A stretch of 64,000 nt of DNA, from NCBI GenBank assembly GCA_027623315.1, contig JAQBYD010000005.1:16699-80698 (forward strand), written 5' to 3'. A model generated the notes under the pieces. It was given only the letters and a program-made list of their open reading frames with translations, did no database searches and was not told the DNA's origin. A program made the position numbers and the translations under genes. The stretch is from Verrucomicrobiota bacterium. Its GTDB lineage: Bacteria; Verrucomicrobiota; Kiritimatiellia; CAJWTS01. This document shows, one piece after another, positions 1 through 42,013 of the stretch. The stretch's first letter is position 1; each line of letters opens with the position of its first letter.

Positions 1-214
1 AGATGGTGCGTCCTCCTGCCAGGTAGCCGCGCAGAACGTCGTGTGCCGCCGCCAGTCCGGCGCGTGTGATCGCGTGATCGGGCCCGTAGAGGCCCATGTT
101 GCTCACGGACCGGCCGATCGACGCAACTAGCTCGACCGTCTTCTCTTCGCTGGCCTTGCGGATGGTTGGTTTCTGCTTCGGTCGGCTTGCGCCATCGGGT
201 GGAGCCATGGACAT
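1..214 (-). CDS. 5' part of a hypothetical protein, running off the window start
   Basis: Manual translation MSMAPPDG...SIGRSVSNMGLYGPDHAIT...; open to position 1; AAGGAAAG-like RBS upstream. Confidence 0.6.
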   Translation of the reverse strand, partial: MSMAPPDGASRPKQKPTIRKASEEKTVELVASIGRSVSNMGLYGPDHAITRAGLAAAHDVLRGYLAGGRTI

Positions 215-248
215 CTTTCCTTGTCACCGAGGGAGATAAACTAAAGTA

Positions 249-261
249 TTGACCCTGTCAA
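249..261. promoter_or_regulatory. TTGAC-N3-GTCAA palindrome between divergent genes (overlapping -35 boxes or an operator)
   Basis: Perfect dyad ttgaccctgtcaa in the intergenic region. Confidence 0.35.
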
Positions 262-342
262 ACGGCATGCTAGGAGACGCGGAGCTTGGAACCATTAACG
301 TCATAGCCCTGAAGCCGCAACCACAATAAGGAGAGCAATACC

Positions 343-942
343 ATGCAACGTTGGTCACTACTCATATCGGGAATCGCCTGTCTTGTGCTCATCTCTGGCT
401 GTGGCTGTCCTCGAAAGTCGAAGAAAGAAGACGATGCCGGGCCGGTAGCATCCAAAATTGCCGAAAAACTGATGGAGCATGCCATCAAGAAGAGTGCGGA
501 CGGGGACGCCGATGTTCAGATCAAGGACGGTAAGCTCCAGATCAAGACCGCGGAAGGGGAAACGACACTGGACTATGGCGAGGGCAAATTCGAAATCCAG
601 TCCGATGAGGGAAAGTTCTCGATGTTGTCCGGCGAGAACGCGAAGATTCCAGAGGGATTTCCGGATGAATTGCAACCTTACGACGGAGCCAAAGTTGTGC
701 AGGTGATCACGCACGAAAAAGGTGCGATGTTAGGCACGGAGACAGACGACTCCGCGGACGACGTCTTTGCGCATTACCAGGAGCGGTTCGTGGCGGATGG
801 ATGGACCGAACAGTCGAGCGTGAAGATGCCGGCGATGAAGATGCTGATCTATCAGAAGGACGACGCCACGGTGACGATCAACGTCGTGCCGTACGAGGGC
901 AAGACACGCGTACAGCAGACATTGACTCGCGACTTGCGCTGA
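343..942 (+). CDS. Putative lipoprotein, function unknown
   Basis: RBS AAGGAG; lipobox LISGC; C-terminal KIPEGFP..L.PYDGA / Y.ERF..DGW fold common in lipoproteins. Confidence 0.8.
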   Translation: MQRWSLLISGIACLVLISGCGCPRKSKKEDDAGPVASKIAEKLMEHAIKKSADGDADVQIKDGKLQIKTAEGETTLDYGEGKFEIQSDEGKFSMLSGENAKIPEGFPDELQPYDGAKVVQVITHEKGAMLGTETDDSADDVFAHYQERFVADGWTEQSSVKMPAMKMLIYQKDDATVTINVVPYEGKTRVQQTLTRDLR

Positions 943-1032
943 CGCGAAACTCCACGGTCAGCGGGGTTTCAGCCTGGGATAGAAGCGTGCGTTCTTCGGG
1001 AGATCTGAACCGCCTATCACCCCTCCTGGCGC

Positions 1033-1080
1033 GCATCGCAGGGGGTCACGTACACGAGTACAGATTCCCCCCTGCGATGC
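1033..1080. repeat. Inverted-repeat hairpin
   Basis: gcatcgcaggggg ... ccccctgcgatgc, 13-bp perfect arms. Confidence 0.7.
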
Positions 1081-1290
1081 ACACCATGAGAGGCAATCTG
1101 ACGATCCAAATTCCCGACCCTCCTGCGTCGGGCATCAGAACGCAAGCTTCGGGGGCCCCCGCCGCGCAGCGCGGCGGATCAGAAGGATGGATCAAAGGCT
1201 CACTGATGTATGATCCAGCCGAGCTTGCCGCGCGGCACGCGTGGGCACGACGCCGGAGGCGCGGCTGACCTGAAACTTCCCGGATTTTTG

Positions 1291-1495
1291 CCCACGAATC
1301 ACACGAATCTGCACGAATTTCCAGAGCGGAGAGATCGCGGATGGCGCGGATACTTTCGATATGGGGCAGTGCAAATCAGCGCGAGTTCGGCTCGCTCTGA
1401 TTTACACTCCCAAATCTTGGTTTGGCCTCTTTAGCAGTAATCCGCGCACATCCCGCCTGCCCCACGTGCGGCAAGGCTCCGCCGCGCCCGTGCGG
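1291..1495. repeat. Composite of 9-mer micro-repeats (cacgaatca) and a 40-bp REP-like element
   Basis: cccacgaatcacacgaatctgcacgaat at 1291; 1456-1495 matches 44293-44332 at 38/40 nt. Confidence 0.75.
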
Positions 1496-1501
1496 ACAGC
1501 C

Positions 1502-1888
1502 ATCCCCGATCCATGCGCGGAGCGCTACCGGGGTTTCTTCAGCTCGACGCGCTCCGCGGGGATTCGCGATACAGAAAGTGCGACCGGAAAACCAATCGCA
1601 CTCTCCGCATCCCCAATCCACGCGCGGAGCGCTACCGGGGTTTCAGCTCGACGCGCTCCGCGGGGATTCGCGATACAGAAAGTGCGACCAGAAACCCAAT
1701 CGCACTCTCCGGATCCCCAATCCACGCGCGGAGCGCTACCGGGGTTTCAGCTTGACGCGCTCCGCGGGGATTCGCGATACAGAAAGTGCGACCTGCGTCC
1801 GATCGCACTCTCTGAATCCCAAATCCTGCGGAGCAGCGGACGACCGGGGAAGCGCTCCGCGCGTGGATTGGGGAGCCGGAGAGTGCGA
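1502..1888. repeat. Array of four long palindromic units (three tandem at ~104-107 bp period, plus one inverted)
   Basis: Units 1502-1583 (partial), 1596-1687, 1700-1791 and reverse-orientation unit 1803-1888; ends TCGCACTCTC / GA(G/A)AGTGCGA; inner stem cgcggagcgc/gcgctccgcg. Confidence 0.95.
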
Positions 1889-1898
1889 TTGGGATGCC

Positions 1899-2672
1899 TT
1901 AACTCAGGCTGCTCGATAGGGCGAGGAGCATAGACACGATCTCTTCTAGGTGGCACTTTCCTTGGGCCGCCGTTGCCGGAGAAATCGTCGATCTGGTCAG
2001 CATCAGATCCAGACTTGTAGCGGCTTGCAGGCCTGAAGCCTGCGCGATCTCCAGAAAGCGAATTCGATCGGTCACGGAGAACTTCCCGTTGCCTTCCGCG
2101 ATGTTCAACACGATGCTCGTGCACTGGCGGTCGAGGTCCCGGCCGCGCGTCATTCCTACTGGTTCTGATTGCAGGAGAGCCGCGCTCCAGCTGACGAAGC
2201 GCAGTGCTGATTGGAATACCTGCAGCTTTTCGTGGGCAAAGATAAATTGTGAACCCGCATCATCGGATGCGCCATACGGCGCTGACGCTTCGCGCGCCTG
2301 CATCCCTTCGGCGCCTCGGAGACCAATCACCGTCGCGACTACCCGATCGAGGAGCGTTTTCCCTTCGAGAACGCGGCCCGGTTCAATGAGCCTCCAACAC
2401 GCAAGCACGTCCAAGCATGCCGCACACTCAAGTGCCGACCCGTACGATATATCGAAGGTTTGTGCCCGATCCGGTCCCTTCGGTTTCGCATTGGCGCGGA
2501 CGATATTGCGAGAGATGCTCTCAGAAGCGCGAAGCAGGTGGTCGCGCGCGGAAATCGCGGGTTGCAAGCCCTGAAGCCATGGCGCCGACCATCCGACAAA
2601 CTCAAGAGAGGACTGATAGGCATCGAGTTTCTCGTGATTAAACCAAGTCTCGGGCGGGACGTCAGGAGGCAT
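1899..2672 (-). CDS. Tandem double four-helix-bundle protein (23S rRNA IVS protein / bAvd-like family)
   Basis: Two homologous halves: FNHEKLDAYQ..SISRNIVRA..SYGSALECAACLD and FAHEKLQVFQ..SIVLNIAEGNGK..DRIRFLEIAQAS. Confidence 0.88.
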   Translation of the reverse strand: MPPDVPPETWFNHEKLDAYQSSLEFVGWSAPWLQGLQPAISARDHLLRASESISRNIVRANAKPKGPDRAQTFDISYGSALECAACLDVLACWRLIEPGRVLEGKTLLDRVVATVIGLRGAEGMQAREASAPYGASDDAGSQFIFAHEKLQVFQSALRFVSWSAALLQSEPVGMTRGRDLDRQCTSIVLNIAEGNGKFSVTDRIRFLEIAQASGLQAATSLDLMLTRSTISPATAAQGKCHLEEIVSMLLALSSSLS

Positions 2673-2713
2673 TGTCTAAGCCTATGTCCCGTGGCTCTTC
2701 TCGGCAAGTCGGA

Positions 2714-2851
2714 TCACGCTCCCCGAATTTCGAATCCTGCAGCTTGCCCACCGAAGCAATCCCGCGGCCGCGGGAGCGTAGGAGGGAGCAGCGGAGCAGC
2801 GGACAACCGGGGAAGCGCTCCGCGCGTAGATTGGGGATCCGGAGAGTGCGA
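2714..2851. repeat. Long palindromic unit carrying a nested small REP-like element (2745-2786)
   Basis: Same family and orientation as 1803-1888; the insert tgcccaccgaagc...gcgtaggaggg recurs at 30048-30089. Confidence 0.9.
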
Positions 2852-2873
2852 ACGGAGTTATTCTAGTTTCACC

Positions 2874-3401
2874 CTAAGACTCCGGCGACTCGACACTGAT
2901 ATCCACCATCAGATCCGCGCTGACCCGCTCGAGATCGTCGCGCAGATCATCCAGGGAGGTATCGGGCGCCGCACTGAGGCGCAGCTGTGCGGTGAATAGG
3001 GGACCCGCGCTCAAGGGCGCGCCGGCGCATTCCGAAACCAGCTCTTCGATGTTCGCGCCGTACGCGTGAATGGCCTGCGTGACCGAGCTGATAATACCCG
3101 GCTGATCGTGTCCCGTCAGGCCGATCTGGAGCGTCATCCGATTCGGCGACGCATCGGCCTCGCTCCCGGCATGAATCGTTATCGACAGCCCCTGGTCTTG
3201 CAGGTCGAGCAGGGCCTGCTTTAACCGGTCGGCCTCTTCGTCCGGACAGCGAGCCCTGAGGACACCCGCAAACTGACCCGAAAGGCTGGCCATGCGGCTC
3301 TCCTCCCAGTTGGCTGCGTGGGCCTCGATCACACCAGAAAGGGCCTCCACGATACCCTGCTGATCTTTACTCAGAACGGTCATGACGAGGGATACGCTCA
3401 T
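2874..3401 (-). CDS. gcvR: Glycine cleavage system regulator-like double ACT-domain protein
   Basis: DQQGIV..NWEESRMASLSGQFAG and GHDQPGII..NIEEL ACT motifs. Confidence 0.82.
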   Translation of the reverse strand: MSVSLVMTVLSKDQQGIVEALSGVIEAHAANWEESRMASLSGQFAGVLRARCPDEEADRLKQALLDLQDQGLSITIHAGSEADASPNRMTLQIGLTGHDQPGIISSVTQAIHAYGANIEELVSECAGAPLSAGPLFTAQLRLSAAPDTSLDDLRDDLERVSADLMVDISVESPES

Positions 3402-3694
3402 GGCCGAAACCTTTTGCCGCACGTCCAAAAGTGTAAAGCGGAGAAATTCGGGTCAGATTGCGTCCGAGGTCCTGTTTCGTTCACAGCGGGCCGCCTGCGA
3501 CCAAAGGTGGCTGCAGGTAACCAAATCTGCGGCTCAGCGATGATCCTCTCACCGCAGACGCGACGACTAATCCTAATAAACAGGCGAATTGGCCCCAATC
3601 CGAGCGCTTGGCACAGCCCATGCTAAATCCAAGGGGTAGGAAAATTGAGACGATCAGGGGCATCGGCCGAATACATAGACAAAGGAGCAGGACC

Positions 3695-4219
3695 ATGTGG
3701 CAAGAACATACAGAATGGAACGGATCCCGGCCTTCAGTTCTAGTCATGCATGAGGACGAGGTGATTCGCGACTCCTATAGTAGCGCGTTGCGCCAGCACG
3801 GCTGCTCAGTTCAGTCCGTCCGCGATGGCAGCGCGGCCCTATCTCTGCTCAAGCACAATGAGTTTGATGTACTGGTTACCGATCTTCACGAGTCGCGCGA
3901 CGAGGGGATCCAGTTCTTGCAGGAGACCCTGCGCGTCCGGCCATGGCTGGGCGTCGTCGTGCTTTCCAGCGGGTTTGACCGGCAGGTTCTGCCGAAGATC
4001 TACGAGTTGGGCTGCACCTGCGTCCTGGAGCGCCCGGTCGCACTTGCGACGCTTTGCCAGAGCGTGATCCACGAGGCGCGTGCCCGCAAAGAGTTGGAGT
4101 CCACGCACTATGGATTTATCGCGGACCGGTTGCCGGAGAAGCCGATGGTTATAGGCGGCGACATGGAAACCGATGGCGATACGATTCGATTCAATCTTCT
4201 CAGCGTCGCGGGTCTCTGA
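3695..4219 (+). CDS. Response regulator receiver-domain protein (atypical)
   Basis: RBS AAGGAG; VLVMHED..FDVLVTDL..GIQFL..VVVLS..ERP receiver pattern. Confidence 0.8.
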   Translation: MWQEHTEWNGSRPSVLVMHEDEVIRDSYSSALRQHGCSVQSVRDGSAALSLLKHNEFDVLVTDLHESRDEGIQFLQETLRVRPWLGVVVLSSGFDRQVLPKIYELGCTCVLERPVALATLCQSVIHEARARKELESTHYGFIADRLPEKPMVIGGDMETDGDTIRFNLLSVAGL

Positions 4220-4231
4220 CGCGACGACGTC

Positions 4232-4286
4232 AAAAAGGACGGTGTCAGCACACATGCCTTCGTGTGCGCTGACACCGTCCTTTTTT
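4232..4286 (+). terminator. Intrinsic terminator, likely bidirectional
   Basis: aaaaaggacggtgtcagc...gctgacaccgtcctttttt just after the stop codon. Confidence 0.85.
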
Positions 4287-4406
4287 ACTTGCGTTCACGG
4301 TCTGATCTGAACAGAGTTCCGAGCCTTAAATCCCACGGACGCCGTGACGATGGTGAGCCGGGCAGGTGGGAAGCATTAACAACACGCTTGGGACGGAGGG
4401 AAGACG

Positions 4407-5573
4407 ATGGCCGACAAGGAACTCGCATTCACACTGATCAATCCGGCTACGCTGGCAAAATCTCGAAGCGGCGGCATCATCGCGCGCTACATGAGCCGAA
4501 CCGGCCTGGAATTGGTCGGCGCGCGCATGTTTGCCCCGGGCAAGGCCCTGGCTAGTGCGTATGCAGCCCTGGCTGGCCGTGATGGGTTTTACCCCGCCCG
4601 CACCGCAAAGCGGATGTCTGAATATATTCGCACGCAGTATGCCCCGGACGCGCAGAGCGGGCGACCCCGCCGCGTGATGATGCTCCTTTTCGAGGGCAAG
4701 GACGCCGTTCGAAAAGTCAGCGCCGCGACCGGTAACCCCCAGACGGCATGGAAGTCGGGTGACACCATTCGCGGGACTTTCGGAGATCTGGTCACGGACG
4801 CCAAGGGTCGGGACGTCTACTTCGAGCCGGCGGTGCTGGTCGGACCGGACGTGCGCAAGACTCGCGAGGTGCTCAAGCTGTGGAGTGCGCACTCGCAGCG
4901 CGACGGTGGCATTGTCGATCACGCCGGGGACGTGCCGCGGGGCAAGGGGGTGCAGTCGACGCTGGTGATGCTCAAGCCAGACAACTTTCGCTTCCCGAAT
5001 CTGCGCGCCGGCCAGATCATCGATGTCCTGTCCCGCTCGGGACTTCACATTGTCGGCGCCAAGAAATTCTCGATGACGGTCGCGCAGGCCGAGGAATTCT
5101 ACGGTCCGGTTCGTGCTGTTTTGCGGGACAAGCTTTCGGGCCGTTTCGGGGAGCAGGCGCGCGAGATCCTCGAGAAAGAACTTGGGTATGCCATCCCGCA
5201 CAAGGCGGCGCAGACGCTCACCCGTTTGGTCGGACCACTCGGCGCCGATAATCAATTTGAAGCGATTGTAGAATTCATGACCGGTTATCGTCCGTCCGAG
5301 GTGGATCCGGATCGCAAGACCACGCTGGGCAAGGAACACGAGCTTGCGCTGATCTACCGGGGACCCAATGCGGTGCCGGTCATTCGCGACATCCTGGGAC
5401 CGACCGATCCGTCCAAAGCGCCGGTCGGAACCGTGCGCAAGGAATTCGGCAAGAACATCATGGTCAATGCCACCCACGCCTCCGATTCAACCCGCAATTC
5501 GGCGCGCGAGATCAAGATTCTGAATGTTGCGGAAGACACCATCAGCCCGCTGGTGAATAAGTATTATCGGTAG
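4407..5573 (+). CDS. ndk: Nucleoside diphosphate kinase, long two-domain form
   Basis: TLVMLKPD, LGPTDP.KAP.GTVR.EFG...NATHASDS; a second NDK-like N-terminal domain (TIRGTFG). Confidence 0.9.
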   Translation: MADKELAFTLINPATLAKSRSGGIIARYMSRTGLELVGARMFAPGKALASAYAALAGRDGFYPARTAKRMSEYIRTQYAPDAQSGRPRRVMMLLFEGKDAVRKVSAATGNPQTAWKSGDTIRGTFGDLVTDAKGRDVYFEPAVLVGPDVRKTREVLKLWSAHSQRDGGIVDHAGDVPRGKGVQSTLVMLKPDNFRFPNLRAGQIIDVLSRSGLHIVGAKKFSMTVAQAEEFYGPVRAVLRDKLSGRFGEQAREILEKELGYAIPHKAAQTLTRLVGPLGADNQFEAIVEFMTGYRPSEVDPDRKTTLGKEHELALIYRGPNAVPVIRDILGPTDPSKAPVGTVRKEFGKNIMVNATHASDSTRNSAREIKILNVAEDTISPLVNKYYR

Positions 5574-5583
5574 CCGGGCATGC

Positions 5584-5958
5584 GTGGCGGGTGGCGAGTG
5601 GCAAGTGGCGAGTGGCGAGTGGTTTTACGACCCGCATACGATCCGGATCGAGCAAAGCTCTCTCGCGTGTTCGTAGCACTGCCGTTCGCTAACAAGCGTT
5701 ACCGACCGACCTGCCGGTCCCGTCCTGATTCCGGGTTGTCACTTCTTCGCCGGCCTCTGGCAGCACCCAAGCGTCAATTAAGGCGGCGTGGGGGCACGCC
5801 GTCTCCACGCCGCGTTTAGCAATCGATGATTATCCGAGGGTTTGGACCGATCGGTATCTCCGACTGGGGCATGGAGACGGGGTGCCCTCACCCCGCACAC
5901 CGTGAGTGACAACCTATTTCAGTACGGGACCCGCCCACTCCCCACCTGCCACTCCCCC
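5584..5958. repeat. Heptamer (gtggcga)n array with a degenerate inverted partner, enclosing an inner REP-like inverted pair
   Basis: Heptamers 5584-5622, complementary tract 5930-5958; inner inverted repeat 5788-5811 / 5868-5891 (21/24). Confidence 0.75.
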
Positions 5959-5966
5959 CTCCGGTC

Positions 5967-7238
5967 TCAGTCCCGCGCGAGAGCGACGCGAAGCACGCAG
6001 ATCGCGAGCAGCTCCATGGCCTGGCGGATTTCCTCGAGTGAAGGCAGGCTTGGCGAAATCCGAATGTTGCGGTCACGTGGGTCTTTGCCGTATGGAAACG
6101 TCGCGCCCGCCTTGGTCATTTTGACGCCGGCTGCATCGGCCATCGTGCAGACCTCCGCCGCGCATCCGTCCGGCGTGTCCAGGCTCGTGAAGTAACCGCC
6201 GGTCGGTCGGCTCCAGGACGCAACGTCGTAGGCGCGCAGCTCGCGCTCGAGGACCTCATCGACCGCGTCGAATTTCGGCTTGATGATCGTGGCATGCTGC
6301 TGCATGTGTGCGCGCACGCCGTGCATGTCCTGGAAGAACAGGAGATGACGCTGTTGATTGATCTTGTCCGGGCCAATCGCCTGGATCGACATGTTCTTCT
6401 TCACGGCGGCGATATTCGCGGCGCTGCCGCCGATCATGGCGACCCCGCTTCCGGCGAAGGTGACTTTGGATGTGGAGCCGAACAGAAAGACGCGATCCGG
6501 ATTCGCGGCGTCCTTGCAGGCCTGAAGAATACTCGCCAGTTCGTCGGGCGTGTCGGTGAGATGGTGCACCGTGTATGCATTGTCCCAGAAGATACGGAAG
6601 TCGGGCGCCGCGCAGTTCATCGCGGCCAAGCGGTGCACCACGGCATCCGAGTAGGTTTCGCCGGTGGGGTTGCTGTACTTCGGAACACACCAGATGCCCT
6701 TTATGGAGGGATCGTTGGCTACCAGGGACTCGACCTGGTCCATGTCGGGACCTTCACCGGTCAGATCCACCACGATCATCTCGATCCCGAAGTGCTCGCA
6801 GATGCTGAAGTGACGATCGTAACCCGGGCATGGGCAGAGGAACTTGATCGGACCGCACTGGCTCCACGGTTTGTCGCCGCCGGGGACGCCCAGCAGCAGT
6901 GCATTGGCGACCGTGTCGTGCATCAGGGTTAAGCTCGCGTTCGAGTGAACGATGATTTCGTCGGTTCCGACCTCCAGGAAGTCGGCAAAGAGTTGAAGCA
7001 CCTCGTCCGTGCCGCCGAGATTCCCGTAGTTGCGCGTGTCCACGCCGCCGGCCGTTTTGGTGCGGGTCTCGTCGACCAGTGTCAGCATCGGGTTGGCGAG
7101 ATCGAGTTGCGCCGGGCAGGGCTTGCCGCGCGTCATGTCAAGGCTCAGTCCCTGCGCTTTGAAGGTCTCGTATCGTTCGGCCAGTTGCTCGGTGAGTGCG
7201 CGGCGCGCTTCGGAATCCATCGATGCTAGTGTCGGCAT
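5967..7238 (-). CDS. PLP-dependent class I/II aminotransferase (putative aspartate aminotransferase)
   Basis: LDMTRGKP, PGYDRHF, VPKYSNPTG, FWDNAY, STSKVTFAG motifs. Confidence 0.9.
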   Translation of the reverse strand: MPTLASMDSEARRALTEQLAERYETFKAQGLSLDMTRGKPCPAQLDLANPMLTLVDETRTKTAGGVDTRNYGNLGGTDEVLQLFADFLEVGTDEIIVHSNASLTLMHDTVANALLLGVPGGDKPWSQCGPIKFLCPCPGYDRHFSICEHFGIEMIVVDLTGEGPDMDQVESLVANDPSIKGIWCVPKYSNPTGETYSDAVVHRLAAMNCAAPDFRIFWDNAYTVHHLTDTPDELASILQACKDAANPDRVFLFGSTSKVTFAGSGVAMIGGSAANIAAVKKNMSIQAIGPDKINQQRHLLFFQDMHGVRAHMQQHATIIKPKFDAVDEVLERELRAYDVASWSRPTGGYFTSLDTPDGCAAEVCTMADAAGVKMTKAGATFPYGKDPRDRNIRISPSLPSLEEIRQAMELLAICVLRVALARD

Positions 7239-8795: not shown

Positions 8796-9569
8796 CTACA
8801 GAAACACCCCGGCGGCGCCGGCGATGATGCAGTAGATCCCGAACCATTTGAAGTAGCCGGCTGAGAGAGCTTTGACGAGCAGGATGATTGCGCCGTAGCC
8901 GACGAGGGCGGATGTGGCCAGTGCGCAGAGCAGTTCAACCACGGTCAGATTGCCCAGCCCGGCGTCAGAAATGTCCAATGATGCCAGGATGATCGCGCCG
9001 CCCACGGCGGGCAGCATCAGCAGCAGCGAGAACTCCGCGGCTTTCTCCGGTGCGATGCCGAAGTGCCGTGCGACCGTAATCGTGGTGCCCGACCGGCTTA
9101 TTCCGGGAAGCAGGGCGATCGCCTGCGCGAAGCCGATGATCAGCGAAATGGGGCCGGTCATTTTTTGTGAGGAGCGCGGAGCGATGAAGAGCGTGCACAG
9201 CATCAGGCCCGTTACGATCAGCATCCATGCCGCGCGCGAAGGGTCGTCGAAAAGCGGTTCCAGCCGCTGTTTGAAGGCCAATCCGGCGATTACGATGGGG
9301 ATCGTGCCGCAAGTCACCGTCAAAAGGTCGTGTTTCCCTTCCCGGTTGAACTGCTTCACATCGGCGAGGAACTTGGCGATGCGGATGCGGTAGTAGGCCA
9401 GCACGGCCAGCAGGGTTCCAGCATGAATCGTGACCTCCAGCGTCACGTCCGGGGTCTCGAGGCCCAGAAAGCGATTCACGAGAACGATATGTCCCGAGCT
9501 GCTCACGGGCAGAAACTCGGTAAGTCCCTGGACAACGGCCAGCAGGATGACTTTGAGGATGTCGGGCAT
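8796..9569 (-). CDS. uppP: Undecaprenyl-diphosphate phosphatase
   Basis: VQGLTEFLPVSSSGH and PGISRSGTTI signatures. Confidence 0.95.
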   Translation of the reverse strand: MPDILKVILLAVVQGLTEFLPVSSSGHIVLVNRFLGLETPDVTLEVTIHAGTLLAVLAYYRIRIAKFLADVKQFNREGKHDLLTVTCGTIPIVIAGLAFKQRLEPLFDDPSRAAWMLIVTGLMLCTLFIAPRSSQKMTGPISLIIGFAQAIALLPGISRSGTTITVARHFGIAPEKAAEFSLLLMLPAVGGAIILASLDISDAGLGNLTVVELLCALATSALVGYGAIILLVKALSAGYFKWFGIYCIIAGAAGVFL

Positions 9570-9585
9570 TGGGGGGCTGATTCCA

Positions 9586-9636
9586 ACCGGGATGTGACAG
9601 GCTGTCGATAATATAGACGTAGAAGAATTTTTCCAT
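9586..9636 (-). pseudogene. Probable N-terminal remnant of a GIY-YIG nuclease
   Basis: Translates MEKFFYVYIIDSLSHPG, resembling the FYVYIL.S start of small GIY-YIG proteins, then loses similarity. Confidence 0.5.
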
Positions 9637-9678
9637 GACTGGCGTGCCAGGCGTAGCGGGCCGGCCTGAAACGGGGAG

Positions 9679-9750
9679 CCCGTCTTCGCCCTGCGCTACC
9701 GCTTCGGGCTTCGCCGGGCAGTCTTCGCGTGCCTGACGGCTCGCGAAGAC
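9679..9750. repeat. Small REP-like element plus hairpin adjoining the tRNA-Asp 3' end
   Basis: Reverse complement tgcccggcgaagc...gcgaagacggg; adjacent cagtcttcgcg...cgcgaagactg stem. Confidence 0.7.
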
Positions 9751-9827
9751 TGGCGGGAGCGACGAGACTCGAACTCGCAACATCCAGATCGACAGTCTGG
9801 TACTCTAACCGATTGAGCTACGCCCCC
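9751..9827 (-). tRNA. tRNA-Asp (GTC)
   Basis: CCAGA-CT-GTC-GA-TCTGG anticodon arm; GTTCGAGT; encoded CCA. Confidence 0.95.
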
Positions 9828-10080
9828 GCTAAAAGAACGGGTAAGCGAGGGTGTATAGAATTCTGCGAATTCAAAAGCAACAAAAAAACGTGAAGTCGCG
9901 CTCGCCGCCCCAGGGCGGTCTCATCCCTCTTTCACCCTGTAAATTCGCACAATCTTTGCATTCATCGGGTTGTGGCGGGGAGCTGCGTGGGCTATACTCA
10001 GGGCTGAGAAAAGTCGATTTCCTGCATAAGATGCGAACTTGCGGCAACTATCTTGTGAAACGGACGGGAAGAAAGGCACC

Positions 10081-11703
10081 GTGAGTCCAGACCGGATATC
10101 TAAGGAAGCGGACGGCGAGCTCTTGCAAGAGTATGCCGATTCCCGGGATGCACTGGCTTTCGCGGAGATAACGCGGCGGCATGGAGCGATGGTGCTCGGT
10201 GTTTCGCAGCGCATCACGCGCAATACGCATGACGCCGAGGACGTGGTCCAGGAGGCCTTCGTCGAGCTCTCGCACAAGGCCGGCAGCATCAGCTCGTTAC
10301 CCGGCTGGTTGCACCGCGTTGCCACCAACATCGCGAAGACAAAGATTCGGGCCGCCGTGCGTCGTCGTGAGCGTGAGCAGGCATCCATTGAGATCCAGGA
10401 TTCGGAGCCTTCGTCATGGGAAGCGATCTCGCCGCATGTGGATGCTGCGCTTTCCGAGTTGCCCCCCGAGATGCGCGAAGTCATGGTTCTGCATTTTCTC
10501 GAAGGAGCGAGCCAGGCCGAGATCGCGCAGCGTTTGAGTATGAACCAATCTACGGTATCACGCCGCCTGAAGTGGGGTGTCGAGCAGCTGCGTGTGCGTC
10601 TGCGTCACACGGGGGTGATCACCAGTTTCGGCATTCTCTCAATGCTCATGGCGGAGAACGCCGCCGCCGTCACGGCGCCAAAGGCTGTCATGGCCACGCT
10701 TGGCAAGATGGCCATGGTGGGCCTTGGGTCCGGTGAGTCGACCGCCGGCGCATCCACATCGTTGCTGCACGGTGAAATGGCGCGAGCAGCGGCCGTCATC
10801 GTGGTTGGCGTCGTGGGGATAGGGGCACTGGCGTATTTCCTTGCCGGTCCCGGAGACGGTGCGTCACTACGTACTGTGGTGGCGGACTACCAGCTTGATA
10901 ACGGCATGGCGACGCCGTCCGGACCCGCCGCGGCAGGGGCCACGGCAGCGCTCGCAGGTCCGCGTGATCATCTCGGACGCGGCGTGACGGCGATGAACGA
11001 CAACCCCGTCGCGGGCGACTACGAAATCACGACCGACCGACACCGATTTGCAATGGGATCCGCAGGCCGCGGCGCTGCGGCGCAAATTGGCGACCTTCCG
11101 ACGCTGCCCGGCGACGAGGTTGCAGAGGAGCCGCCGATGGCTGGAGCGGATGCGCGCGGGGCCGGCGGCGTGGGATCGGTGACCGACATGATGGCCGGCC
11201 ATTACGGGGCTTATCGACCCTTGCACGGCGGTGGATCGGCGGCTACGGCGGGCGATGAGTCGCTGGACGGGGCCGGATTTGGCGTGAACGGAGGCGCGGA
11301 TGGCGCTGCGGGCAGCTCTGCGAATATGGCGGGGGGCACCGCGAGCGCGATCGACGGTGCGTTGGCTGTCAACACCGGAACAGGCTCCGGGTGGACGGGC
11401 GGGTCCGCAGCGGGAGCGGAAGGCAGCGCAGGAACCGACGTCGGGTCCGGCGACGTTTCAATTAACTCCTTTGCGGCCAACGCGGAGATGCTTTGGGCAT
11501 TCACGGATATGGGATTGTATGCGTACGACTGGGCCCGCGGTGAGTGGCTGAATACGCCCGGCGGTCAGCATCCGTCGGACCCGTCGCGGAATATCCGCAT
11601 TGACGGCGCAGGCAATGTGATTATGACGGTGTATGCCGGTGGACAGATGCGCGATCAGGTCATCGGGCGCGTCACTGCGCCGGATCCCGCAAGCGAGGAG
11701 TAG
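10081..11703 (+). CDS. ECF sigma factor with C-terminal transmembrane helix and Gly/Ala-rich extension
   Basis: AFAEI..RH..MV, DAEDVVQEAF, GWLHRVA, region-4 HTH (SQAEIA..NQSTVSRRL); TM AAAVIVVGVVGIGALAYFL. Confidence 0.88.
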   Translation: MSPDRISKEADGELLQEYADSRDALAFAEITRRHGAMVLGVSQRITRNTHDAEDVVQEAFVELSHKAGSISSLPGWLHRVATNIAKTKIRAAVRRREREQASIEIQDSEPSSWEAISPHVDAALSELPPEMREVMVLHFLEGASQAEIAQRLSMNQSTVSRRLKWGVEQLRVRLRHTGVITSFGILSMLMAENAAAVTAPKAVMATLGKMAMVGLGSGESTAGASTSLLHGEMARAAAVIVVGVVGIGALAYFLAGPGDGASLRTVVADYQLDNGMATPSGPAAAGATAALAGPRDHLGRGVTAMNDNPVAGDYEITTDRHRFAMGSAGRGAAAQIGDLPTLPGDEVAEEPPMAGADARGAGGVGSVTDMMAGHYGAYRPLHGGGSAATAGDESLDGAGFGVNGGADGAAGSSANMAGGTASAIDGALAVNTGTGSGWTGGSAAGAEGSAGTDVGSGDVSINSFAANAEMLWAFTDMGLYAYDWARGEWLNTPGGQHPSDPSRNIRIDGAGNVIMTVYAGGQMRDQVIGRVTAPDPASEE

Positions 11704-29692: not shown

Positions 29693-30123
29693 CGCGCTTT
29701 CTCAATCGGAGATCCCGCGGAGCAGCGGATAACCGGGGAATGCGCTCCGCGCTTGGATTGGGGATCCAGAGAGTGCGACGGAGATCATTCGAGCAACTCT
29801 CACTCTCCGAATCGCGAATCCCGCGGAGCAGCGGACGTCCAGGAACGCGCTCCGCGCTCAGATTGGGGATCCACGGAGTGCGCTGTAGCTCCCGAGGATC
29901 CAATCGCACTCTCCGAATCCCAATTCCTGCGGAGCAGAGAAGCAGCGGACAACCGGGGAAGCGCTCCGCGCGTAGATTGGGGATCCAGAGAGTGCGACCT
30001 GACCGCTTCGACTCCATCGCACTCTCCGAATCCCAAATCCTGCGGCTTGCCCTCCGAAGCAATCCCGCGGCCGCGGGAGCGTAGGAGGGAGCCGCGGCCG
30101 GAGGACCCGGGCAGCCTCCGCGC
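29693..30123. repeat. Second array of long palindromic units with unique ~19-21 nt spacers
   Basis: Units ~29693-29778, ~29797-29882, 29904-29997 and 30017-30123 (last one with nested REP); same family as 1803-1888. Confidence 0.93.
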
Positions 30124-30152
30124 TTGACTTCTCTTGTGCCCCCCAGCACGAT
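30124..30152 (+). promoter_or_regulatory. Putative sigma70 promoter for aspS
   Basis: TTGACT-17-CACGAT. Confidence 0.45.
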
Positions 30153-41542: not shown

Positions 41543-41700
41543 GGGTGATTGAAAAATGGACATTGAGACTTTCTGCAAGGCACTGGGCACGCTTCTGGTC
41601 TCGAGCCCCGACCCAAGTCTCCCCATCGAGCACCTTGTCGAGAACCACCCCGCATTAGTCCTCGTCAAAGTTCTCGGATCAGGAGGGCAGACATTTGAGA

Positions 41701-41846
41701 CAGGACGATTACTGGCAGGACGATTTTTCAGAGAGTCGATGGATGCCTGGAACAGCCAGACTTTACCGTCGCGCCCAGGGGCCGCATCGGACTCCAAGAG
41801 TCACATGCACACACCCAAACTAATCGTCCTGCCAGTAATCGTCCTG
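41701..41846. repeat. Perfect 25-bp inverted repeat built from a 15-nt unit
   Basis: caggacgattactggcaggacgatt ... aatcgtcctgccagtaatcgtcctg. Confidence 0.85.
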
Positions 41847-42013
41847 CCAGAACTCCGGGATTCAGGCGCGAAACGGATTCGGTCGGGTTCCCCGATGGGG
41901 TGGCTTTCAGCACGTTTGTCGCGCACGGCGAGATCAGATGGAGCCCGAAAGGCTCAAGGCTCAATTTCCAAGTCTCAAGGCGCATGTTGGTTGATCACTT
42001 GCCAGTTGCCACT

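Follow-up and report, generated by a model that had tools for sequence, protein, structure and literature searches.

The closest known counterparts of the locus considered here are the intervening sequences (IVS) of 23S rRNA in Coxiella burnetii, Leptospira and Brucella, which carry an open reading frame (ORF) of the S23p/PF05635 family. According to the available text of one report (PMC4990558), the Coxiella IVS has a terminal stem of 28 bp, its S23p ORF is preceded by heptamer repeats, and the element is cut out by RNase III; the same text considers the IVS a selfish element of unknown origin and cites an old idea that the ORF serves mobility. As described in the available part of a second source (PMC10053308), PF05635 is homologous to Avd, the accessory protein of diversity-generating retroelements (DGRs). 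The family is very common, its function is unknown, and how its IVS hosts arose has been a standing question since the 1990s. The subject of this analysis is a PF05635 gene at 1899-2672 of a 64,000-nt stretch of DNA (the window) from a Verrucomicrobiota bacterium of the Kiritimatiellia (GCA_027623315.1, contig JAQBYD010000005.1), which lies between protein-coding genes and is bracketed by long hairpin-forming repeats.

The repeated unit is a palindrome of 86-94 nt, and its orientation is definable because the palindrome is imperfect. As a first-pass annotation of the sequence had claimed, the gene lies between two units of the same orientation (1803-1888 and 2714-2851), with 10 nt between the first unit and the stop codon and 41 nt between the start codon and the second. 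The gene-free array that it placed at 29.7 kb is present as well, with spacers of 19-20 nt, and the gene sits where such a spacer would be. The three further units that it described beside the gene do have the opposite orientation, but only two of them are full and the third is truncated. Across the genome (3.9 Mb in 129 contigs, 95% complete) the unit occurs in about 17 copies at 11 loci, and five of these copies adjoin the 1899-2672 gene, at odds with the abundant and unenriched distribution that the annotation had named as telling against its idea of a repeat-plus-protein system. A search of 40 relatives did not find the unit in 39, and the single match is weak and 40 nt long.

Genes of this family and the repeats beside them (their arms) are associated, and the arms are specific to the gene lineage. 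Within the genome, the 250 nt before each gene were aligned, directly and reverse-complemented, with the 250 nt after it, and scores of at least 20 were counted as positive. By this measure, matched flanks surround six of the nine PF05635 genes (eight above the profile cut-off and one weak; one at a contig end) compared with 2 of 597 scored control ORFs (600 sampled from the 2,747 of 540-1200 nt). Both positive controls are PF01797 genes resembling those of REP-associated tyrosine transposases (RAYTs), which are flanked by repetitive extragenic palindromic (REP) sequences. The six PF05635 flank families are all different (0 cross-family pairs), copies of each lie elsewhere with no gene between them (1 to 24 further loci per family), and they match no RAYT-gene flanks except for one match of 14 nt. 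The assembly holds about ten RAYT-like genes, five with flanking repeats that are their own and mutually different; the 1899-2672 hairpin unit flanks 0 of the 10. Both GxxExxY (TIGR04256) nuclease genes are bracketed in the same manner as the PF05635 genes, with inverted scores of 30.5 and 27.

The association extends to other genomes. When one genome per species was scanned for homologues, 80 related loci came up, 71 of them with enough flank to score; most belong to Kiritimatiellota, Lentisphaerota, Verrucomicrobiota and Planctomycetota. At a threshold of at least 16, and with displaced intervals in the same loci as controls, 43 of the 71 loci are positive versus 1 of 78 controls, so that the co-occurrence of homologues with cognate repeats, a check proposed by the annotation, is borne out. 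The positive loci include two-domain genes (21/30) and one-domain genes (22/41); all 43 match inverted and 14 also directly. The threshold is conservative. Of seven more loci from genomes in one or a few contigs, only one reaches the threshold, with a score of 20.5. Inspection by eye shows, in five of the remaining six, short arms that adjoin neighbouring genes and score 12.5-15.5. Three two-domain loci, from Victivallales, Balneolia and Lentisphaerae, have the layout seen here, with arrays of same-orientation hairpin units with a period of ~90 on both sides of the gene, and their arms contain iterons of 12-14 nt.

The relation between arms and protein lineage was measured over pairs of loci, one supplying its upstream arm and the other its downstream arm as the reverse complement; a likeness of this kind cannot be produced by synteny. 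Similar arms were found in 40/60 pairs at a protein identity of at least 70%, 122/384 at 55-70%, 19/212 at 45-55% and 7/234 at 30-45%, and in 32 of the 40 positive pairs of the highest class the sequence beyond 300 nt from the gene is unlike. In a maximum-likelihood tree of 29 two-domain proteins, from which two loci were left out for internal stops, the four two-domain paralogues of this genome do not form one clade, and well-supported branches force at least three changes. The paralogue on contig C74 groups with Kiritimatiellota and Lentisphaerota proteins (100/100 support), and an iteron core is common to its arms and theirs. Across five tree-defined clades, a repeated 8-mer is common to the flanks in 47 of 65 within-clade pairs versus 35 of 286 between-clade pairs, and the motif is still recognisable within clades at protein branch lengths of 0.4-1.0 changes per site. 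These comparisons show a joint inheritance of gene and arms across genomes and phyla, in contexts that differ. The protein itself is under purifying selection, with a ratio of nonsynonymous to synonymous substitution rates of 0.07-0.27 in 10 of 13 pairs tried (2 were saturated and 1 gave no value). The 257-aa product of the 1899-2672 gene sits on a long branch of the tree, and the arms of its gene have no repeated 8-mer in common with 25 of 27 other loci (two are shared with one locus and one with another).

This product matches PF05635 (E 3e-23; 82.5 bits, cut-off 33.8) in two stretches and TIGR02436 (E 9.6e-19; 67.6 bits, cut-off 24), in keeping with the family call of the annotation, which missed the two-domain form. 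PF05635 is its sole Pfam match and it has no Y1 (HUH) transposase domain. An AlphaFold model built on five paralogues (pLDDT 87.9) predicts two four-helix bundles and a disordered linker between them at residues 127-140. Either half of the model superposes on 2GSC (XCC0516; template modelling (TM) score 0.90, root-mean-square deviation 1.4), the only structure returned by a sequence search of the PDB (E 0.006), and 2RLD (BT_0352) is matched by each half as well; the model thus has the up-down four-helix-bundle fold of 2GSC and 2RLD. Bordetella phage Avd (4DWL; 8UB7 chain E) matches one bundle at a time with TM scores of 0.82-0.84, in agreement with the structural kinship to this protein (bAvd) that the annotation had stated. 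With a PF05635 match in two stretches and two modelled bundles, the product is therefore a tandem two-domain protein, a fusion of two S23p/Avd-like domains. The usual PF05635 form is a single domain of ~120 aa that assembles into a homopentameric ring. The 257-aa tandem protein departs from that single-domain form, as do about 30 of the 80 related loci.

Among known systems, the ORF-bearing 23S rRNA IVS is a closer relative of this locus than the REP/RAYT systems are. Both the IVS and the present locus carry an S23p/PF05635 ORF between complementary terminal arms, which here are 28 nt long, 86% complementary and 1003 nt apart and could close a stem around the gene, and the short periodic repeats beside the ORF have their counterpart in relatives of this locus. 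Unlike the IVS, the locus lies between an ACT-domain gene and a lipoprotein-like ORF and not in an rRNA helix, and its arms are self-folding units of ~90 nt that stand in arrays and are gene-free at about 10 loci. The Coxiella ORF, moreover, is reported to be decaying and probably untranslated, whereas the tandem protein has relatives under purifying selection. With REP sequences, their hairpin-forming doublets (REPINs) and RAYTs, the locus shares a single gene flanked by its own hairpin family, which is also dispersed gene-free between genes, and the genome holds several orthogonal gene-repeat pairs, with its own RAYT-like genes positive in the same test. In contrast to RAYTs, the protein is not a Y1 HUH transposase but a four-helix bundle in which no catalytic motif was identified, the copy number is low (17 units) and no RAYT carries the unit. 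The REP/RAYT-analogous system proposed by the annotation is therefore supported as a pattern only, in that 6/9 PF05635 genes are positive and RAYT-like genes are the only positive controls; the Y1 transposase is not part of it. The fold is like that of bAvd (TM 0.84 to 4DWL), but no reverse transcriptase lies beside the gene, and the protein has two domains and is acidic; template and variable repeats of the DGR kind were not noted, and none were sought as such. Modular units in both orientations, arrays, and a second hairpin nested in a loop recall bacterial interspersed mosaic elements (BIMEs) and nested palindromic repeats, with the difference that BIME-type mosaics are described as gene-free and the array here holds a gene of a recurrently repeat-bracketed family. 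With regard to insertion sequences and miniature inverted-repeat transposable elements (MITEs), inverted arms are present, the protein has no transposase domain, and no target duplication is recognisable at the gene-unit junctions.

In the literature as available, supplements aside, we found no account, outside rRNA, of PF05635 genes with cognate repeats on both sides or of a link between PF05635 and dispersed repeats, and in two papers on heptamer repeats the terms S23, four helix and intervening sequence do not occur. The present locus adds arms in the form of hairpin units and a tandem protein, and its genome combines six orthogonal gene-repeat pairs with five RAYT-REP pairs.

The explanation that best accounts for these observations, and which is offered tentatively, is that the gene and its hairpin units form a selfish cassette of IVS-type build, the arms of which are cognate to the protein. 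In such a cassette, a four-helix-bundle (S23p/Avd-like) gene is enclosed by mutually complementary arms, here complete hairpin units of ~90 nt. As MITE-like or solo copies lacking the gene, the units would have spread or been retained at about 10 other loci, among them the 29.7-kb array. The oligomeric four-helix-bundle protein may recognise its own arms, as iterons or hairpins and as DNA or RNA, and could lend its specificity to a host enzyme, which it would recruit so that the arms are copied, moved or maintained, gene-free copies in trans included. Such a logic would resemble that of REP/RAYT, with no recognisable transposase. In transcripts, the arms would form duplexes that RNase III could cut, releasing the insert from the message of the upstream gcvR-like gene.

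Several observations weigh against this reading. Three of the nine PF05635 genes of the genome and 28 of the 71 homologous loci fall below the respective thresholds, and the genomes behind the locus and pair counts are related, so that their independence is overstated. Arm polarity relative to the gene is not fixed: of 48 loci, 18 have a purine-rich upstream arm and 20 a pyrimidine-rich one. No catalytic domain was detected in the 257-aa protein by profile search, and its pI of 5.6 is mildly acidic, as are those of six other paralogues (5.7-6.2). The two flanking units are 95% alike, yet 2786-2851 is also 95% like the unit at 29904; they are not uniquely nearest relatives and therefore give no sign of a duplication made by insertion. 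At the gene-unit junctions neither a target-site duplication nor separate short arms beside the ORF are recognisable, and the locus is a mosaic of several repeat families, as an insertion hot spot would give. Lastly, no empty site or excised form was found in the relatives or in the contigs of public sequencing runs. The gcvR-like neighbour, next to which the annotation had suggested looking for empty sites, has only distant matches (29-35% identity), in 4 of the 40 relatives, and no match in the single genome that belongs to the same family; no syntenic comparison is possible. Contigs of four DNA runs break at the repeats, and their apparent joints (e.g., 1613 to 2785) were rejected as empty sites as they carry the letters of the paralogous unit at 29.9 kb; they bear neither way on excision or expression. 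Beside these four DNA runs, no RNA run containing the stretch was found.

The main live rival, itself rather unlikely, had been raised by the annotation as cargo carried between units: the hairpins would be a REP/BIME-like family in their own right, with something else such as a RAYT or host process to move them, and the gene would have landed or been captured as a passive passenger in a hot spot. This would fit the ~10 gene-free loci, the exact placement of the gene in the position of a spacer, the flanking units that are not uniquely alike, the ~10 RAYT-like genes (5 with REPs of their own), and an intergenic region that holds pieces of other families, among them an arm of a GxxExxY cassette at ~1281-1325. 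It does not fit the absence of the unit from all 10 RAYT-like genes, the different repeat family at each PF05635 gene, the co-inheritance of arms with gene and the motifs that track protein clades. Also against it, 0 of the 597 control ORFs are embedded in this way when the RAYT-like genes are set aside. A sample of 151 genomes of the phylum, all at least 90% complete, holds PF05635 in 105, often in many copies; a Y1_Tnp match is absent in 27 of these 105, although in draft genomes the lack of a match, to this or another profile, does not prove that the gene is absent.

A less probable alternative would confine the hairpins to RNA, as processing or stability elements (RNase III sites or 3' stabilisers) by which the gene is insulated and expressed as part of the gcvR-like transcript, with no role in mobility and no interaction with the protein. 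IVS stems are described as RNase III substrates (PMC4990558, available text), the hairpins here are strong, and the gene is co-directional with the ACT-domain gene with no promoter-like site found between the two by scan. Among 11 related copies, G-U outnumbers A-C in the stems (13 versus 3) in one orientation, a weak indication as the copies are related, and the fold energies point the other way: the unit at 1803-1888 folds at -53.1 kcal/mol on the plus strand versus -46.1 on the minus strand, so that the mRNA strand is not favoured. The gene-free arrays, the opposite-orientation units beside the gene, the free polarity of the arms and their clade-specific motifs would all be left unexplained. 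That the protein is a DGR Avd, or part of a retro-mobilised cassette dependent on reverse transcriptase, is rejected as highly improbable despite the bAvd fold match (4DWL and 8UB7 chain E) and the standing of PF05635 as the commonest family beside DGR reverse transcriptases in the available text of PMC10053308, since the single RVT_1 match of the genome is on a contig (C91) that has no PF05635 gene, 59 of the 105 PF05635-positive genomes have no RVT_1 match, some with 10-18 PF05635 matches, and the repeat search of 1-6000 listed no long pair other than the hairpin units, a template/variable pair not having been sought as such. One sampled genome has 7 PF05635 matches and neither an RVT_1 nor a Y1_Tnp match, and a reverse transcriptase partner is unlikely as a general feature.

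A wider and more doubtful proposition is that PF05635 proteins may be the sequence-specific recognition subunits of widespread mobile cassettes that lack a transposase, each lineage maintaining and spreading a hairpin or iteron family of its own in the manner of RAYTs with REPINs, with the rRNA IVS as one special case and many unexplained intergenic heptamer or hairpin arrays as their footprints. Lineage-specific bracketing, gene-free repeats and the match of motifs to clades across phyla together yield a testable hypothesis, that the protein recognises its own arms, and the six orthogonal gene-repeat pairs of this genome would be a natural test panel should it be true. The same cassettes are a possible source of intergenic repeat arrays that are otherwise unexplained.

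The features of the locus are collected in Table 1. Chance was rejected as the origin of the repeats, as a 37-nt arm pattern (at most 3 mismatches) has 6 matches in the window versus 0 in 100 shuffles. Long hairpins are predicted for the three simple units (-45 to -53 kcal/mol; z -3.7 to -6.3), and 0 of 200 shuffles fold equally well; the composite unit folds less well (z -1.6 to -2.0). The two full units of opposite orientation are 97% alike and have a period of 104, and the right half of the composite unit, 2791-2851, shares 95% identity with 1828-1888. When repeats were clustered de novo from 14-mers present at least 4 times, the clustering merged 621 regions into one component because repeat families adjoin in mosaics, and families are not countable by this means.

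Table 1. Positions of the gene, the hairpin units and the outer arms in the window
Feature	Positions	Strand	Details
Hairpin unit, 5'-truncated, opposite orientation	1502-1583	+	model positions 14-94
Hairpin unit, opposite orientation	1596-1689	+	fold z -4.9
Hairpin unit, opposite orientation	1700-1793	+	fold z -3.7
Outer arm, IVS-like closing stem	1798-1825	.	pairs with 2829-2856 across the whole gene
Hairpin unit after the stop codon, oriented like 2714-2851	1803-1888	-	-53.1 kcal/mol, z -6.3
Two-domain four-helix-bundle protein gene	1899-2672	-	ORF of 257 aa; PF05635 twice, TIGR02436
Composite hairpin unit before the start codon	2714-2851	-	left arm 2714-2737, nested module ~2738-2790, right half 2791-2851
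Outer-arm partner	2829-2856	.	pairs with 1798-1825
Gene-free array of the hairpin unit	29693-30130	-	units 29693-29778, 29799-29882, 29904-29997; degenerate fourth ~30016-30130

The fourth unit of the 29.7-kb array carries a nested module, as the composite unit does. This second, independent hairpin module, with a CCGCGGCCGCGG palindrome at its centre, lies at ~2738-2790 and ~30042-30090 and also on contigs C24, C95, C124 and C125; it stands alone at several loci and is nested in the loop of the main unit twice.

Upstream of the gene and on the same strand is the ACT-domain gcvR-like gene (2874-3428), the match of which to the GcvR model is below cut-off, and on the other side lies the convergent lipoprotein-like ORF (343-942). 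A scan for promoters and terminators gave nothing at the hairpin units. Rfam returned 5 tRNAs as its only matches in the window, with no rRNA, and no Rfam family at the units. Within the gene, 2223-2482 is identical to a 260-nt contig (depth 2) of a run from another study of marine sediment (X3), in which little else of the 64-kb stretch is found.

Between the lipoprotein-like ORF and the hairpin units, 1281-1325 is a solo arm of CACGAATC-type iterons, the family that brackets, as inverted pairs, the GxxExxY gene at C61:3236-3640, and its summed contig depth is very high in the two aquatic runs. A long imperfect hairpin with 50-nt arms (70%) occupies 996-1117; contigs of runs X1 and X2 contain a form that skips 1015-1117 and has 7 other letters instead, attributable either to a paralogous copy or to this hairpin being polymorphic (filled/empty).

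Other members of these repeat and gene families differ in their arrangement. The PF05635 genes at C12:7555-8241 and 9332-10117 are ~1.1 kb apart and have their own families (24 and 12 other loci), and the former has lost most of its N-terminal domain. At C32:11242-12400, a PF05635 gene has a purine-rich tandem array of ~500 nt on one side and the complement on the other, and the open frame upstream of the PF05635 domain continues into the array. A gene-free hairpin with a loop of ~90 nt in the window (41699-41731 and 41822-41849) has arms that match the second GxxExxY gene (C85:8322-9143), and beside it (~41556-41600 and 41945-41975) are pieces of the heptamer arms of the PF05635 gene at C37:18684-19070; all of these are inside the gap between a comF-like and a UvrD-like gene that converge. 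An inverted repeat of 29 nt (86%) at 5783-5811/5868-5896 matches the REPs after the RAYT-like gene at C72:27645-28292.

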